A stretch of 64,000 nucleotides of DNA from Alphaproteobacteria bacterium (GTDB lineage: Bacteria > Pseudomonadota > Alphaproteobacteria > CACIAM-22H2), in contig OZ257155.1 in assembly GCA_965279355.1 (NCBI GenBank), positions 4,276,230 through 4,340,229 on the forward strand, written 5' to 3'. Below the pieces are notes generated by a model. The model was not told the origin of the DNA. It did no database searches and saw only the letters and a program-made list of their open reading frames with translations. A program made the translations under genes and the position numbers. Shown in pieces: positions 14,957 to 64,000 of the stretch. Position 1 is the stretch's first letter. The number at the start of each line of letters is the position of its first letter.

Positions 14957-15145
14957 GACTCTGCCTGAAATCGGCGCAATACATCCTAGTCGTCGCGCTA
15001 GCGGTTCGCCAGATCGCCAGAATTCGTGCTTTGGGCCAGCAAAATCCATGTGTTAGGGTCGGCCCAGCTTAAATAGGGAGGAAGGCCGAACTCGGCAGGA
15101 TTCCGGTCAACCGGAGCCGTCGATCCTCGGCAGTCAAAATCACAC

Positions 15146-17209
<2,064 letters not shown>

Positions 17210-58019: not shown

Positions 58020-58129
58020 AAGTCCTTTGACCGGGGCAGGGTCCGCCTATATATAAAGCCATCCCGAAATTCCCGGTGTGGTTCGAGTTTCCCTTAAAGG
58101 AAACGATACCCGCGCCATTTGCGGAGGCT

Positions 58130-58837
58130 CCCATGACACTCCCGCTCATGCCCAAAGCAACAGCGGTCTGGCTGGTCGAGAACACGGCGCTCACCTTTGA
58201 GCAGATTGCCGAGTTCTGCGGCATGCACGCTCTCGAAGTCCAGGGCATCGCCGACGGCGAAGTCGCCATCGGCATTGTCGGACTCGATCCGGTTGTCAGC
58301 GGCCAGCTCACCCGCGAAGAGATCGTTCGCTGCGAGGCTGATCGCAATGCTCGGCTGCAGCTTGCCAAGTCCGACCTGCCGGAAGTGACCGGTCGCGGCA
58401 AGGCGGCGAACTACACCCCGGTGTCCAAGCGCCAGGAACGGCCGCACGCCATTGCGTGGCTGCTGCGCCATCACCCGGAACTGACCGACGCGCAGATCCG
58501 TCATATGGTCGGAACGACCAATACGACGATCCAGAAGATCCGCGACCGCTCACACCCGGAAACGCCGAACCTCAAGCCGCGCGATCCGGTGGCGCTCGGT
58601 CTCTGTACCCAGGCACAGCTCGACGAGGCGCTCGACAAGTCGCATCGCTCGGCGCTGCGCGCCAAGCGCGAGGCGGACCGTCAGGCCCGCCGCGCCGCCA
58701 AGGCGCTGGAAGACGCGGAAGCGGCGAAGGAAGCCGATGCTGCTCGCGAAGCCGCTGCCCAGCTCGATGCCGCGACGACCGAAGTCGAGGAATCGACCCC
58801 GGCCGAGAGCTCGGAGAGCGAGACTCCGCGCAGCTGA
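58130..58837 (+). CDS. DUF1013 domain-containing protein (TrcR-like cell-cycle regulator family)
   Basis: 236 aa counted from MTLPLMPKATAVWLVENTALTFEQIAEFCGMH (ATG 58130, GGAGG SD). It has a conserved DUF1013 N-terminal domain and an Ala/Glu-rich charged tail. The track ORF starts 18 codons earlier. Confidence 0.8.
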   Translation, partial: PMTLPLMPKATAVWLVENTALTFEQIAEFCGMHALEVQGIADGEVAIGIVGLDPVVSGQLTREEIVRCEADRNARLQLAKSDLPEVTGRGKAANYTPVSKRQERPHAIAWLLRHHPELTDAQIRHMVGTTNTTIQKIRDRSHPETPNLKPRDPVALGLCTQAQLDEALDKSHRSALRAKREADRQARRAAKALEDAEAAKEADAAREAAAQLDAATTEVEESTPAESSESETPRS

Positions 58838-58847
58838 GTGATGCGGC

Positions 58848-60629
58848 TTACGCCGCGCTGACTTCCGGCCTTTTCAGACGCACGACATTAAAGACCTTCA
58901 CGGGCCGACGGATGCCTTTGAGGGTGAGGTCCTGCGCCTCTTCGCAATCCACGAGATGCGCGACCTCGGCGTGGACGGCGCTGTCAACCAGGATTTGGCC
59001 GTCCCGCGCTTCGCCGCACAGGCGCGCCGATAGATTCACCACAGAGCCGATGGCCGAGTAGTCGAAGCGGCCTTCGAAGCCGATGCGGCCCAATGTGGCG
59101 AAGCCATGGGTGATGCCGACGCCGAAGCCAAGTTGGTGGCCGGCGGCACGCCATTTGGCACTCAGCACTGCCATCGATGTCTGCATCTCTACCGCCATGC
59201 GCACGGCGCGTACTGAAGGGTCGGGGCAGGGGATCGGATCGTTGAAGAGAACCAGCACGCCGTCGCCGACAAAGCGCTCCAGCGTTCCCTCGAATTTGTG
59301 GATCAGCTCACCAAGCGCCGCGTGATACTCGTGCAGCACGGTCATGACTTCTTCCGGCTCCGCTGCTTCAGCGAAGGCCGTGAAGCCGCGCATGTCGCAG
59401 AACACGACCGAGACTTCGCGGCGATGGCTTTCGAGCATCTTGTCGCTGCCGGTTGATTCAATGACCTCGGCAAGCTGCGGCGACAGGAATCGCCGCAGGC
59501 GTCCGACCCGTTCCTCGCGTTCCTTGGAATCGCGTAGCTCCGTCGACATGGTGTTGAACTGATCGGCCAGCGCCTCGATCTCGTCGCCGGTCTTCACCTC
59601 GACACGGGCACCAAGATCGCCGCTGCCGATGCGGGCGGCACCGGCCTGTAAGGCGCGGATCGGCACGACCATGCGCCGTGCCAGAAACAACGCCGCGAGG
59701 ATTGCGCCGAGCAGACCGAGCAGCAGCACGAAGCCGCTGCGCTGGATCGATGCGACGAGTGGCGCGTAGGCTTCATCGAGCGGCAGTTCGGCGAACACCC
59801 ACCAGCCGAGCGGCGCGATGGGCGCATAGGCGGCCAGTACGCGCTTGCCCTGGAAATCCTCGGTGGAAAGCGCCCGTTCGGGTGACGTCCCGCCATTTCG
59901 TGCTGCCGCAACCTGCCGCAAGCCGGAGAAATCGGTGTTGCGCAGAACTAGGCTGATATCGGGGTGCGCGATCAGCCTCCCTCGCGCATCCACGACATAG
60001 GCGCGGCCGCCATTGCCGACCCTGATCTGCGACACGACGTCCCAGATGAATTTGAGATTGACCTCGGCCGCGCTGATACCGGCGTCGCGCCGAGCCCCGG
60101 CGACGGCCAGCGTCATGTACGGCTCGGACTCACGGCGAAAATAGACCGGACCGTTATAGGTTTTCTGCGCCACCGCTTCTTTGAATCGGGGCTCTTGAGA
60201 AAGATCCTGCTGGCTGTCGATCACATCCATGGCGAGCCGCGAGACGCGCAGGCGCTCGCGTCCGGCGGAGTCGATCTGGGTAAGTTCCGTTACCGCGGGC
60301 ACCTGACGCAAAAGGCGCAACGCATCGAAACGGCGCTGATCGAGGACGCCGGCCGACCATGGCAATTGTGTCGTCCAGCCGAGTTGTCCTTCGATTTCCT
60401 TGACGAACTGGCCGATCTTGGTCGCCGCGGCCTCGGCCTGCTCCCGTTGCAGGCGAAACAGGAGTTCGGTCTGGTCGCGGTAGAGAAACCACACTTCGAC
60501 CGCGCCGTTGGCCAGCAGCGCGGCACCGACGACCGACGAGAACAGCAGTACGTATTTGCGAAAAAGGCGGCCGCGTGTTTTGGGCAGCGGCGACACTCCC
60601 GCTTTGAGCACAGCGCCGCCGTCGTTCAC
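58848..60629 (-). CDS. membrane adenylate/guanylate cyclase with periplasmic sensor domain and HAMP domain
   Basis: About 593 aa from the GTG at 60627-60629, which overlaps the upstream SBP stop as GTGA. TM1 is followed by a periplasmic domain of about 270 aa, TM2, a HAMP domain (PIRALQAGAARIGSGDLGARVEV) and a class III cyclase domain (VSVVFCDMRGFTAFAE...ERFVGDGVLVLFN). The track ORF 58848..60866 adds out-of-frame read-through. Confidence 0.85.
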   Translation of the reverse strand: MNDGGAVLKAGVSPLPKTRGRLFRKYVLLFSSVVGAALLANGAVEVWFLYRDQTELLFRLQREQAEAAATKIGQFVKEIEGQLGWTTQLPWSAGVLDQRRFDALRLLRQVPAVTELTQIDSAGRERLRVSRLAMDVIDSQQDLSQEPRFKEAVAQKTYNGPVYFRRESEPYMTLAVAGARRDAGISAAEVNLKFIWDVVSQIRVGNGGRAYVVDARGRLIAHPDISLVLRNTDFSGLRQVAAARNGGTSPERALSTEDFQGKRVLAAYAPIAPLGWWVFAELPLDEAYAPLVASIQRSGFVLLLGLLGAILAALFLARRMVVPIRALQAGAARIGSGDLGARVEVKTGDEIEALADQFNTMSTELRDSKEREERVGRLRRFLSPQLAEVIESTGSDKMLESHRREVSVVFCDMRGFTAFAEAAEPEEVMTVLHEYHAALGELIHKFEGTLERFVGDGVLVLFNDPIPCPDPSVRAVRMAVEMQTSMAVLSAKWRAAGHQLGFGVGITHGFATLGRIGFEGRFDYSAIGSVVNLSARLCGEARDGQILVDSAVHAEVAHLVDCEEAQDLTLKGIRRPVKVFNVVRLKRPEVSAA

Positions 60630-61606
60630 TCGATCACCTCGTCGGCGCGGAAGAGCACGGACTGCGGAATGGTGATCCCGAGCGCCCGCGCGGTCTTGAG
60701 GTTCACCACCAGCTCGAACTTGATCGGGTTCTGAACCGGAATCTCCCCGGGGCTCGCGCCCCGCAAGATACGGTCGACCACATCCGCGCCGCGGCGGAAC
60801 GAGTCTGTGATGTCGGGGCCGTAGGAAATCAGGCCGCCGGCCCGCGCGAACGCACCGTTGCTCCATATTGCCGGCAGCCGCGCGGCAGCGAGCACGGCGA
60901 TGATGGCATCGCGGCGCCCTGCGACGAACGAGGAGGATGCGAGCACGACGCTACCCGGCCCACCCCTCGCGAAGGCGGAGACAGCGGTCTGCAGATCCGC
61001 CATGTCGCGGGTCGAGATGATCGACAGATCGAGAGACAAGCTGCGCGCCGCCGCCTTGACCGCCTCCTGCCAATGCGAGACCTCCGGATTGTCGACGAAC
61101 AGGATGCGCCCCATGCCGGGCGTGATCTCCTTAAGCGTTTCCAGCCACTTGCCGCCCATCGCGATGTCGACGTAATTGGTGAGGCCGGTCATGTTGCCAC
61201 CGGGAAGGGCGAGGCTCTGGACGAAGCCTTGCGCTACCGGTTCTTGAATCATTTGAAAGATAATCGGGGTGGTCGACGTCCGCTCGCGGAGCGCACTCAC
61301 GCCGACATTTCCCATGACCATGATGGCGTCCGGCGCTGTCGCGACGAGCTCAGCAGCGTGAGTCTGGATTCGCGCGTTATCGCCACTGCCCCAGCGGACA
61401 TCGACATTCAGATTGCGTCCCGCCGCCCAGCCGAGCGCCTGCAGCCGTTCAAAGAACGCGGCGTTGTTCGCCAGTTGCGCCGGGTCGTTCTCGGCGGTGA
61501 CCAGCAGCATGCCGATGCGCCGCACGCGTTCGGTTTGCGCGCGCGCAAATTGCGGTCCCGCCAAGAAAGCGCTGGCAGCCAGCGCAATGACGTCGCGCCG
61601 CCTCAC
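60626..61606 (-). CDS. orphan ABC-type periplasmic substrate-binding protein (PF04392 ABC_sub_bind family), copy A
   Basis: 326 aa from a GTG start that overlaps the upstream stop (GTGA). It has a signal peptide [24 protein letters not shown] and a PF04392-type fold. It is about 85% identical to copy C and about 45% identical to copy B. Confidence 0.85.
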   Translation of the reverse strand: MRRRDVIALAASAFLAGPQFARAQTERVRRIGMLLVTAENDPAQLANNAAFFERLQALGWAAGRNLNVDVRWGSGDNARIQTHAAELVATAPDAIMVMGNVGVSALRERTSTTPIIFQMIQEPVAQGFVQSLALPGGNMTGLTNYVDIAMGGKWLETLKEITPGMGRILFVDNPEVSHWQEAVKAAARSLSLDLSIISTRDMADLQTAVSAFARGGPGSVVLASSSFVAGRRDAIIAVLAAARLPAIWSNGAFARAGGLISYGPDITDSFRRGADVVDRILRGASPGEIPVQNPIKFELVVNLKTARALGITIPQSVLFRADEVIE

Positions 61607-62577
61607 TCGATCACCTCGTCGGCGCGGGCGAGTAGCGCCGCCGGCACCGTCAGGCCGAGCGCTCGCGCGGTCTTGAGGTTAATCACGAATTCGAACCGGG
61701 TCGGATTTTGGACGGGCAGGTCGGCGGGATTCGCGCCCTTCAATATCCGATCGACATAATCGGCGGCGCGGCGAAACAAATCTACGGTATCAGCCCCGTA
61801 GACCATCAAGCCCCCGTCACGGTCGGCTACCGCCCGAACCGCGTAGATCACGGGCAGCCGCTGCTCGATGGCAAGCCGTGTCAATCGTGTGCTGTGCGTC
61901 GACAGGAATGGATCGGGCGGGACGATCAGGGCGGAGTGTCGCTCATTCGCGAGTGCCCGGATGGCATTCGTAAGGTCGGCTTCGGTGCGGACATCCGATA
62001 CCTGCATCGTCAGCCTGAGCGACGAGGCGGCAGTTTCGATTGCTTGAAGATACCCGCCGGCAGAAGACGCCGTTGAGTTGAAGACGAATCCGACGCGTCT
62101 GAGATCCGGAGCAATCTCGCGCAGCAGTTCCAACCATTTCTCCCCGAGCGTGGGCTCGAACAGTGTAAAGCCGGTGATGTTGCCGCCAGGCCGGGCAAGA
62201 CTCGCCACCAGCCCGGCGCGGACGGGATCGTTGAGCGTCGGACAAACAATGGGAATCGTGCCCGTCTCGCGTTGGACCGCAGCCGTGACGGGATTGGTGT
62301 GGGCAAGCATGACCTCAGGCCGAAGCGCAACGAGTTCTCGCGCCAGCGGTACGATACGCTCGCTGATGCCGCTAGTAGAGCGGATATCGAGATGAAGACT
62401 CTCATCTTCACGCCAGCCGCGCTCGTGCAGGCGCAGGCGGAAGGCGTCGAGATTGGGTGTCGCATCTATCGCCATCAACACGCCGACGCGTCGCAGGCGG
62501 TCGGATTGCGCGCGCGCAAACTGCGGTCCCGCCATGGAAGCGCCGGCGGTTAGCGCAATAAAGTCGCGCCGCTTCAC
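61603..62577 (-). CDS. orphan ABC-type periplasmic substrate-binding protein (PF04392 family), copy B
   Basis: 324 aa from the GTG at 62575-62577 ([24 protein letters not shown]). It overlaps the copy C stop as GTGA. The track ORF 61603..63021 is over-extended by 148 codons. Confidence 0.85.
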   Translation of the reverse strand: MKRRDFIALTAGASMAGPQFARAQSDRLRRVGVLMAIDATPNLDAFRLRLHERGWREDESLHLDIRSTSGISERIVPLARELVALRPEVMLAHTNPVTAAVQRETGTIPIVCPTLNDPVRAGLVASLARPGGNITGFTLFEPTLGEKWLELLREIAPDLRRVGFVFNSTASSAGGYLQAIETAASSLRLTMQVSDVRTEADLTNAIRALANERHSALIVPPDPFLSTHSTRLTRLAIEQRLPVIYAVRAVADRDGGLMVYGADTVDLFRRAADYVDRILKGANPADLPVQNPTRFEFVINLKTARALGLTVPAALLARADEVIE

Positions 62578-63554
62578 TCGATCACCTCGTCGGCGCGGAA
62601 GAGCACCGACTGCGGAATGGCGATCCCGAGCGCCCGCGCGGTCTTGAGGTTCACGATCAGCTCGAACTTGATCGGGTTCTGAACCGGAATCTCCCCGGGG
62701 TTCGCGCCGCGCAAGATACGGTCGACCACATCCGCGCCGCGGCGGAACGAGTCTACGACGTCGGGGCCGTAGGAGACCAAACCGCCGGCCTGTGCGAACG
62801 CACCCTGGCTCCACATTGCTGGCAGCCGGGTGGCGGCGAGCACGGCGATAATGGCGTCGCGGTGTCCGGCGGAAAACGAGGAGGATGCAATCACGACGCC
62901 ACCCGGCTCGCCCCGCGCGAAGGCGGAGACGGCGGTCTCCAGATTCACCATGTCGCGGGTCGACACAATCGACAGATCGAGAGACAAGGTGCGCGCCGCC
63001 GCCGTGACCGCCTCCTGCCAATACGAGATCTCGGGATTATCGACGAACAGGATGCGTCCGATGCCGGGCGTGATCTCCTTAAGCGTTTCCAGCCACTTTC
63101 CGCTGATCGCGAAGTCGACGTAATTGGTGAGGCCGGTAATGTTGCCACCGGGAAGGGCGAGGCTTTGCACGAAGCCTTGCGCGACCGGTTCTTGAATCAT
63201 TTGAAAGACGATCGGGATGGTCGACGTCCGCTCGCGGAGCGCACTCACCCCGACATTTCCCATAGCCACGATGGCATCCGGCGAGTTCGCGACGATCTCA
63301 GCAGCGTAAGTCCGCATTCGCGCATTGTCGCCACTACCCCAGCGGGTAACGATATTCAGATTGCGTCCCGCCGCCCAGCCCAGCGCCTCCAGCCGTTCGA
63401 AGAACGCGGCGTTGCGAGCCTGTTGCGCCGGGTCGTTTTCGGCCGAGGTCAGCAGCATGCCGATGCGGCGTACGCGCTCGCTTTGCGCGCGCGCAAACTG
63501 CGTTCCCGCCACGAAAACGCCGGCAGCCAGCGCAATGACGTCGCGCCGCTTCAC
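62574..63554 (-). CDS. orphan ABC-type periplasmic substrate-binding protein (PF04392 family), copy C
   Basis: 326 aa ([24 protein letters not shown]...) from a GTG start overlapping the stop of the truncated fourth copy. It is about 90% identical in nucleotides to copy A over its whole length. Confidence 0.85.
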
Positions 63555-63822
63555 TCGATCACCTCATCGGTGCGAATCAGCAGCGCTGGCGAGGCGGTGA
63601 TGCCGAGCGCCTTTGCGGTCTTGAGGTTGATGACCAGCTCGAATTTCATCGGCTGATATAACCGTGGTCGCACAAGCCTTCGCGAAACAGGGTCAGGAAC
63701 GGTTTATGGCTGCCGATCAGCAGGATGGCGATATTGGGAATGGGGGGCGGTTGCTGGGCTCTGGCCAGCAGAGGCCACGCAGTTACGCTTCCGGCGAGTG
63801 TTAAGAACAGACGTCGTTTCAC
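63551..63822 (-). pseudogene. deletion-scarred fourth copy of the PF04392 binding-protein gene
   Basis: A GTG at 63822 (SD GGGGGA) opens [58 protein letters not shown], the N-terminal 58 aa of a paralog. This runs straight into ATGAAATTCGAG, which encodes the last 33 aa ([32 protein letters not shown]) in another frame. About 235 internal codons are missing. Confidence 0.55.
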
Positions 63823-64000
63823 GTTTCCCCCGCACTGCCATGCCGGGGAAGCTTAGACACTTTTAGTCTACGGAGCCAGCTGCCGCGATTTTCAGTCCTT
63901 CTTTTGCACAACCCGCCGGTCGCAGCACGTCGGCGATTTCATCCAGGATCGCCGGGTCTTGAGATCGCACCGGGACAGGTTTAGGAGGGGGTCAGCTCGG

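Follow-up and report, generated by a model that had tools for sequence, protein, structure and literature searches.

A candidate binding-protein-dependent cyclic-nucleotide sensor: tandem PF04392 genes beside a dCache-HAMP-class III cyclase gene in an alphaproteobacterium

A stretch of 64,000 nucleotides from an Alphaproteobacteria bacterium of the GTDB lineage CACIAM-22H2 (assembly GCA_965279355.1, contig OZ257155.1, positions 4,276,230 to 4,340,229, forward strand), hereafter called the window, carries on its minus strand (63554 to 58848) three genes for substrate-binding proteins (SBPs) of the PF04392 family, followed by a gene for a transmembrane class III nucleotide cyclase. On balance, we think it probable that this locus encodes a binding-protein-dependent cyclic-nucleotide sensor, whose SBPs would signal through the periplasmic dCache domain of the cyclase; the proposal draws on sequence comparison and on analogy with characterized receptors. 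The arrangement of four minus-strand genes, three for PF04392 SBPs and one for a HAMP-cyclase, had been recognized from the DNA letters alone (the sequence-only reading) and is confirmed by the open reading frames (ORFs), the sequence and Pfam. A functional link between the SBPs and the sensor is strongly backed by comparative genomics: across taxa, and with no ATPase gene beside the arrays, an SBP gene adjoins the receptor gene in every one of the 12 distinct dCache-HAMP-cyclase loci whose flanks could be read and, in any orientation, in 54 of 76 loci with a related sensor module. From these comparisons, the partner of the SBPs is best read as the dCache-HAMP sensor module and not as the cyclase as such.

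The cyclase gene (58848..60629, minus strand) starts with GTG and encodes a protein of 593 amino acids that is identical to the public gene call P0001; the starts agree with public calls. Pfam assigns residues 60-279 to a dCache_1 periplasmic sensor domain (59793..60452; 66.6 bits against a cut-off of 45), which sits between the transmembrane (TM) helices TM1 (about residues 25-47) and TM2 (about 289-313), residues 315-367 to a HAMP domain (59529..59687; 59.3 bits) and residues 404-580 to a class III cyclase catalytic domain (Guanylate_cyc, PF00211; 58890..59420; 61.1 bits), all on the minus strand. The protein is not a histidine kinase, as the cyclase domain directly follows HAMP and neither HisKA nor HATPase_c is present. 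The periplasmic domain, earlier estimated at about 270 amino acids, is indeed there, but it measures ~245 amino acids and amounts to a complete dCache_1 domain. SBP3 (60626..61606, 326 amino acids, 131.6 bits), which adjoins the receptor, SBP2 (61603..62577, 324 amino acids, 143.9 bits) and SBP1 (62574..63554, 326 amino acids, 124.8 bits) are encoded on the same minus strand. All three belong to PF04392 (ABC_sub_bind; 125-144 bits against a cut-off of 25.9) and cover positions 10-293 (SBP3), 11-293 (SBP1) and 24-293 (SBP2) of the 293-position profile; the exact 326-residue sequence of SBP3 is present among public gene calls. The closest solved structures are 3LKV and 3LFT (SBP2), and PDB relatives of the family include 6HNI. 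The earlier description of the SBPs as diverged paralogues holds for SBP2, which is 43-44% identical to either of the others, but SBP1 and SBP3 are 84% identical. Their N-termini (MKRRD[VF]IAL...ARAQ, ending FARAQ) show on inspection only an RR n-region, a hydrophobic core and an AxA site and look like twin-arginine translocation (Tat) signal peptides; RR occurs within the first 12 aligned residues of 117 of 181 related SBPs. The window contains no PF04392 genes and no cyclase gene other than the members of this cluster.

For the comparison, an alignment of the TM-dCache-TM-HAMP N-terminal part was used to query a search set of one genome per GTDB species. This returned 80 loci whose sensor modules are 60-89% identical to that of the window, 76 of them with enough flanking sequence, in which SBP genes were located by tblastn with the window SBPs. 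In 45 of the 76, the receptor gene is immediately preceded by a same-strand SBP gene, and the SBP arrays at sensor loci comprise 1-10 genes. In the kilobase before the receptor, same-strand SBP coding sequence makes up 46.6% of the bases; for the downstream windows the figure is 0-7%. The 12 loci with a dCache-HAMP-cyclase (the window, L081, L008, L070, L082, L085, L159, L165, L166, L167, L168 and L170) span Alpha- and Gammaproteobacteria and a metagenome-assembled genome (MAG) of the Gemmatimonadetes, and their gene order and orientation vary. For instance, the orthologous locus L081, with the same TrcR/ADH/SspB/fumarase flank, has nine tandem SBPs, L165 has an SBP on each side of the cyclase, both on the opposite strand, and L166 has two SBPs downstream of the cyclase; L167 comes from an Arenicellales (gammaproteobacterial) MAG and L168 from the Gemmatimonadetes MAG. 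In L168, a 134-residue ORF without a Pfam hit (1307-1711) lies between the SBP and the cyclase. The recurrence of the synteny in relatives, which the sequence-only reading had put forward as its first check, is thus positive, and the opposite outcome that it had named as fatal, a complete ligand-binding module that never co-occurs with PF04392 genes, is not what is seen: the dCache domain is complete but co-occurs with them throughout the 12. A metagenome scan with the catalytic-domain alignment gave mostly short contigs, with most hits limited to the cyclase domain and few usable for synteny, but it pointed to the response-regulator cyclases described below.

The sensor module is far from confined to cyclases. 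The 80 related proteins mostly have lengths of 780-1200 amino acids, and the module typically stands on GAF-histidine kinases: by Pfam, the sensor is followed by GAF in ten of ten representatives, with HisKA and HATPase_c in eight, two with a receiver domain too, and a motif screen marks most other loci as histidine kinases. Searched with a profile, 1.84 billion representative proteins yield 2,861 clusters (50% identity) at E <= 1e-30, and 50 sampled top hits contain HisKA (28), GAF (31), REC (8), a cyclase domain (3) and SpoIIE (1). The sequence-only reading had tied the SBPs to the cyclase; the synteny upholds the tie, but the partner appears to be the dCache-HAMP module, found mostly on GAF-histidine kinases. 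As SBP adjacency persists across two outputs, the pairing tracks the sensor and not the output domain. Where histidine-kinase loci have enough flank, a cyclase-domain gene adjoins the kinase in 46 of 73, nearly always downstream. Nine of these neighbouring cyclases were translated, and all nine have a receiver-like N-terminus; REC plus Guanylate_cyc was found by Pfam in all three that were scanned. The REC-cyclases fall into subclasses of about 370 amino acids (52-65% identical to the cyclase domain of the window) and about 415 amino acids (28-34%). In locus L034 (3379-7861), the gene order is sensor histidine kinase, single-domain response regulator, REC-class III cyclase, and the cyclase domain of the last is 64% identical to that of the window. 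Comparison with the kinase loci suggests that the window gene is a one-protein fusion shortcut of a pathway running from SBP through sensor kinase to REC-cyclase, and it is best read as a fused derivative of this commoner pathway. The REC-cyclase link independently supports the view that the sensor module goes with cyclic-nucleotide output.

The genes of the cluster are joined by a conserved cassette. At the SBP3/cyclase junction, direct reading of the minus strand gives GAGGTGATCGAGTGA (60626..60640), and the same cassette, which forms junction repeat family D1, stands at 61603-61617, 62574-62588 and 63551-63565 (minus strand). It encodes E-V-I-E-stop with the GTG of the next gene laid over TGA, and GTGA is found at 63554-63551, 62577-62574, 61606-61603 and 60629-60626, exactly where the sequence-only reading had placed it; the overlap, which had been given as 1 nt, is 4 nt. 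The four junctions are identical because a conserved gene end was duplicated, and not by chance. Within the last codons lies GAGGTGATC, nine nucleotides that we take to be complementary to the conserved 3' terminus of 16S rRNA (the window itself is without an rRNA gene), and the coding sequence for DEVIE-stop doubles as a near-perfect Shine-Dalgarno sequence and restart codon. In 181 complete SBPs from all loci, the DEVIE C-terminus occurs in 121, ATGA or GTGA at the stop in 123 and GAGGTGAT in 94. DEVIE is kept even with a TAA or TAG stop, so that the peptide itself also seems, on this sequence pattern, to be under selection. In related loci, 4-nt overlaps are found at 48 of 84 SBP-SBP junctions and at 13 of 50 SBP-receptor junctions. 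Hence, coupling is common and not obligatory, and the earlier claim that the arrangement is enforced by such coupling is right as to frequency but not as to universality.

None of the arrays has the ATPase neighbour expected of an importer operon. No ATP-binding cassette (ABC) ATPase, searched for as ORFs with Walker A and LSGGQ motifs, is encoded within 42 kb of the cluster in the window, and permease genes were not searched separately; the earlier statement that no ABC genes are near therefore stands for the ATPase part. The sole ABC ATPase signature of the window belongs to a 710-residue ORF at 15077-17206 (plus strand), whose two ABC_tran domains and one oligo_HPY domain mark it as a fused double ATPase of the Opp/Dpp type; it is judged unrelated to the PF04392 cluster. 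A motif scan finds no ABC ATPase beside any of more than 50 related arrays, and the Pfam gene tables of eight relatives contain none. The sequence-only reading had also allowed that a dedicated permease or ATPase might be encoded just beyond the window edge; in L081, the 10 kb upstream hold further SBP genes only and no ABC ATPase, and no ATPase accompanies the arrays elsewhere. An ABC importer operon in the manner of TrpXYZ, with SBP, permease and ATPase, is thus not found, no ATPase being present beside the arrays, and the window SBPs score 92-134 bits with the TrpX equivalog model, whose cut-off is 390.

The sensor itself has a bimodular alpha/beta fold between the two TM helices, and an AlphaFold2 (AF2) model of residues 1-378 (pLDDT 81) shows a canonical dCache, in which the N-terminal helix is long and the beta-sheets form two modules. 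In Foldseek comparisons with solved dCache structures, the sensor model reaches E values of about 1e-11 and target-normalised TM-scores (TMt) of 0.6-0.75, with PacA, PscC, PctA/B/C, Tlp3 and mmHK1S as neighbours. The distal module of dCache_1AA subfamily members carries an AA_motif that reads YxxxxRxWY ... Y ... D (PMC8915833). The motif, sought as the regular expression Y....R.W[YF], is present in none of the 81 receptors and none of the 120 cyclase homologues, and an amino-acid-sensor reading of the domain was rejected on its absence; by-eye alignment places QDLSQEPRF in the corresponding stretch.

Several observations weigh against signalling by the SBPs through this domain. The dCache fold is complete and its closest structural neighbours (PacA, PctA-C, Tlp3) bind small ligands directly, which leaves room for direct ligand sensing by the dCache. 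No SBP gene is adjacent in 22 of the 76 sensor loci (about 29%), mainly those of one Bradyrhizobium clade, and L169 (8001-10400) encodes a dCache-HAMP-GAF-cyclase that shares 67% identity with the window protein in an alignment covering 59% of the query and has no PF04392 gene within 8 kb; the sensor is equally conserved in all of these. Overlap coupling reaches the receptor gene at just 13 of the 50 SBP-receptor junctions, and PF04392 is unreported as a signalling SBP family in the open-access literature searched. The window ends at position 64000, and L081 served as a substitute for the sequence beyond. Conservation among the 81 receptors is highest in the membrane-distal dCache module (mean pairwise column identity 0.85; 67 of its 105 columns conserved to 95% or more), ahead of HAMP (0.80) and the TM helices (0.61-0.72), in figures that are biased upward because the 80 loci were chosen as the top hits of the sensor alignment. 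An invariant surface of this module lies around W85, Q98-R108, S168-Y171 and E189-K193.

The complete fold, most like that of direct ligand binders, and the loci without an adjacent SBP also favour the main rival explanation, which we regard as unlikely, namely that the SBPs are uptake components of an ABC translocator encoded elsewhere, that the dCache senses a small molecule itself and that the genes are neighbours through co-regulation, for example in cyclic-nucleotide-controlled scavenging. PF04392 proteins of known function are indeed SBPs of ABC importers for aromatic amino acids, and for the TTT family it has been suggested that orphan SBPs use a common translocator (PMC5994714). However, such an explanation has to accommodate more than 50 arrays with no adjoining ABC ATPase, TrpX scores far under the equivalog cut-off, and an adjacency that outlasts changes in order and orientation, spans phyla and tracks the sensor module over two outputs. 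Moreover, a distal module that bound ligands directly would be expected to vary, yet it is the most conserved part of the receptor.

The SBP arrays, by comparison, change rapidly around the constant sensor. Within arrays, the median SBP identity is 40%, and just 4 of 310 pairs exceed 70%. The window and the orthologous locus L001/L081 have cyclases with 87% identity and share the flank of TrcR, ADH, SspB and fumarase genes, but there are three SBPs in the one and nine in the other, and no SBP pair between the window and L001 exceeds 44% identity; judged from these sequences, there was either full turnover of the array or different losses in each lineage. The arrays bear signs of recombination in the form of gene ends conserved on both the 5' and the 3' side, junction repeats of 300 nt and, upstream of SBP1, the remnant of a decayed PF04392 gene (63822-63551, minus strand). 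Its N-terminal fragment (63646..63822, GTG at 63822, an ORF of 58 amino acids) is translated as VKRRLFLTLAGSVTAWPLLARAQQPPPIPNIAILLIG...GYISR* and resembles SBP N-termini, with a signal-peptide-like start and the first SBP strand and helix. Its C-terminal fragment (63551..63649, an ORF of 32 amino acids) corresponds to SBP residues 291-326, with a tblastn match at 63661-63554 of 58-64% identity. The two halves are separated by an internal deletion and a frameshift. ATGA at 63649-63646, with ATG over the stop, joins them and GTGA joins the second half to SBP1, so that an unbroken chain of start/stop overlaps runs into the array. The conserved ends, the junction repeats and the deletion remnant together point to active recombination, and by their sequence pattern the SBP genes behave as exchangeable cassettes beside a constant sensor.

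Two further explanations bear on these arrays. The first, which we hold to be distinctly improbable, takes the SBPs as partners of the sensor but not as carriers: they would serve as inhibitors or scaffolds irrespective of ligand, or would contend with the dCache pocket for the same solute and, as buffers, tune its sensitivity. It can call on the same synteny evidence as signalling by loaded SBPs, the conserved distal module could bind one universal ligand, and in LuxPQ and HptAS the receptor binds the SBP even in its apo form (PMC8050422). Up to 10 paralogues at about 40% identity and full turnover between orthologous loci nevertheless fit a diversification of specificity better, and the three intact copies retain full-length PF04392 matches. 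The second, to which we give very little credence, is that the association is functionless and that an expanding tandem PF04392 family landed by the receptor through recombination between its conserved ends. While these loci are rich in PF04392 genes even at a distance from the receptor, the junction repeats and the deletion remnant indicate active recombination and the array content turns over fast, chance landing would not be expected to put same-strand SBP sequence on 47% of the upstream kilobase against 0-7% of the downstream windows, nor to leave an SBP gene at each of the 12 cyclase loci, which include those of distant phyla with single SBPs in otherwise unrelated neighbourhoods.

Returning to the binding-protein-dependent sensor, we propose the following sequence of events. 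The three putatively Tat-exported PF04392 SBPs and the receptor would be made from one mRNA in linked amounts, because each gene end, in the observed cassette GAGGTGATCGAGTGA, provides a ribosome-binding site and a restart codon. Each SBP would capture its own solute in the periplasm, and the loaded SBP would dock on the highly conserved receptor dCache, as synteny and analogy to LuxP-LuxQ, HptA-HptS and NspS-MbaA suggest. From there, the signal would travel across TM2 and HAMP into the class III cyclase dimer, where it would alter cAMP synthesis. A bolder version, which we advance tentatively and with some doubt, is that the dCache never binds a solute and is a universal docking port contested by up to ten quickly exchanged, Tat-exported PF04392 SBPs, with many solutes integrated into one cyclic-nucleotide output that is produced either directly or by way of a histidine kinase and a REC-cyclase. 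If true, this would explain many transporter-less PF04392 genes in soil alphaproteobacteria and would make the window protein the first binding-protein-dependent adenylate cyclase.

The catalytic domain has the features of a class III enzyme. Its closest solved relative is the catalytic domain of Pseudomonas aeruginosa CyaB (3R5G, E 1.4e-49), a class IIIb adenylate cyclase with the same metal-binding Asp residues and transition-state Asn and Arg; in the family alignment, D of FCD and D of GDG (metal-binding) and N and R of NLxxRL (transition-state) are invariant. In class III cyclases, the purine is specified by a Lys and an Asp/Thr position. At the first of these, the window protein has Arg (ERF in ERFVGDG, residues about 494-496, nt about 59142-59150) where CyaB has Lys (DKFVGD), and at the second it has Ser (DYS, residues about 566-568, nt about 58926-58934) where CyaB has Thr (DYT). 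The first purine position is Arg in the subfamily of the window protein and His or Ser in more distant members; the second is Ser in the subfamily. The product may well be cAMP, with cGMP or another product as possible alternatives. CyaB further differs in its membrane part, as it is anchored by MASE2 and not built as dCache-HAMP.

The principle of a binding protein acting on a dCache receptor is established. dCache-like domains are documented docking sites for SBPs, whose genes adjoin those of the receptors (PMC8050422). The receptors reviewed are chemoreceptors, kinases, GGDEF/EAL enzymes and one Ser/Thr kinase, served by thirteen SBP families; no adenylate or guanylate cyclase is listed there as an SBP-stimulated receptor, and ABC_sub_bind (PF04392) is absent from the text (PMC8050422). 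Ligands in solved PF04392 structures are Trp, Tyr and Phe only (PMC10443332). NspS-MbaA and ScrB-ScrC of Vibrio resemble the window locus in having a transporter-less SBP gene by a dCache-like membrane receptor with a nucleotide second messenger as output (PMC8050422), but they have one SBP (PF13416 or PF00497), GGDEF/EAL domains and cyclic di-GMP (c-di-GMP), whereas here 1-10 PF04392 SBPs go with a class III cyclase, either fused or reached via a kinase and a REC-cyclase. LuxP-LuxQ and HptA-HptS likewise have an SBP encoded beside the receptor and a dCache-like docking site, HptA contacting both dCache modules (PMC8050422), and are sensor kinases, as are most relatives of the sensor of the window. 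They differ in SBP family (PF13407 for LuxP), in having a single SBP and in lacking a cyclase; binding has been solved structurally there and is inferred here. The periplasmic domain of LuxQ also forms its own Pfam family, whereas that of the window protein scores as canonical dCache_1.

Expansions of orphan SBPs are known from a different fold family as well. The orphan TctC/Bug proteins (PF03401) of Rhodoplanes, Bordetella and Bradyrhizobium, together with BctC-BctE signalling, share with the present arrays their occurrence in soil alphaproteobacteria and their transporter-less tandem organization of up to nine genes at <50% identity, and a sensory role has been proposed for them from nearby histidine kinase genes (PMC5994714). 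They have, however, no defined receptor partner, whereas here one sensor module recurs and the pathway ends in a cyclase. TrpX-type importers (Streptococcus TrpXYZ; 3LFT, 3LKV, 6HNI) have the same Pfam family and fold, with the C-terminal strand-helix in common; the window SBPs differ from them in scoring far under the equivalog cut-off, in lacking ATPase neighbours and in having apparent RR-type signal peptides and DEVIE ends. In the open-access full texts searched, neither PF04392 arrays with receptors nor an SBP-dependent adenylate cyclase is described, which is not proof of novelty. What is new here is the SBP family, the class of output and the multi-cassette array. If SBPs do control the cyclase, cyclic-nucleotide synthesis would join the outputs governed by binding proteins, PF04392 would gain a signalling role, and a large class of orphan SBPs in Bradyrhizobium-like soil bacteria would get a concrete, testable function. 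A constant sensor re-targeted by swapping SBP cassettes would also be attractive for biosensors, and, as the sensor family is large (the 2,861 clusters above), the result would apply widely.

Downstream of the cluster, a convergent TrcR gene (58076-58837, PF06242) ends 10 nt from the cyclase stop at 58848. No terminator-like hairpin is present between the two genes, and a promoter and terminator scan of 58600-64000 gave no signal above shuffled expectation. Two representatives, P0161 and P0170, have about 275 residues before the sensor and were considered as SBP-sensor fusions; the reading was rejected, as P0161 is over-extended, running out of frame through the SBP gene upstream, and P0170 is a decayed SBP read into the sensor. 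Mechanically called ORFs in the window extend in the same manner: those at 58848-60866 (672 amino acids) and 61603-63021 (472 amino acids), both on the minus strand, have out-of-frame 5' extensions through the upstream SBP that are rich in Arg and Pro (...RRRGDRV). Public gene calls repeat this over-extension error, as in P0161, and it can mimic a fusion or an N-terminal extension.

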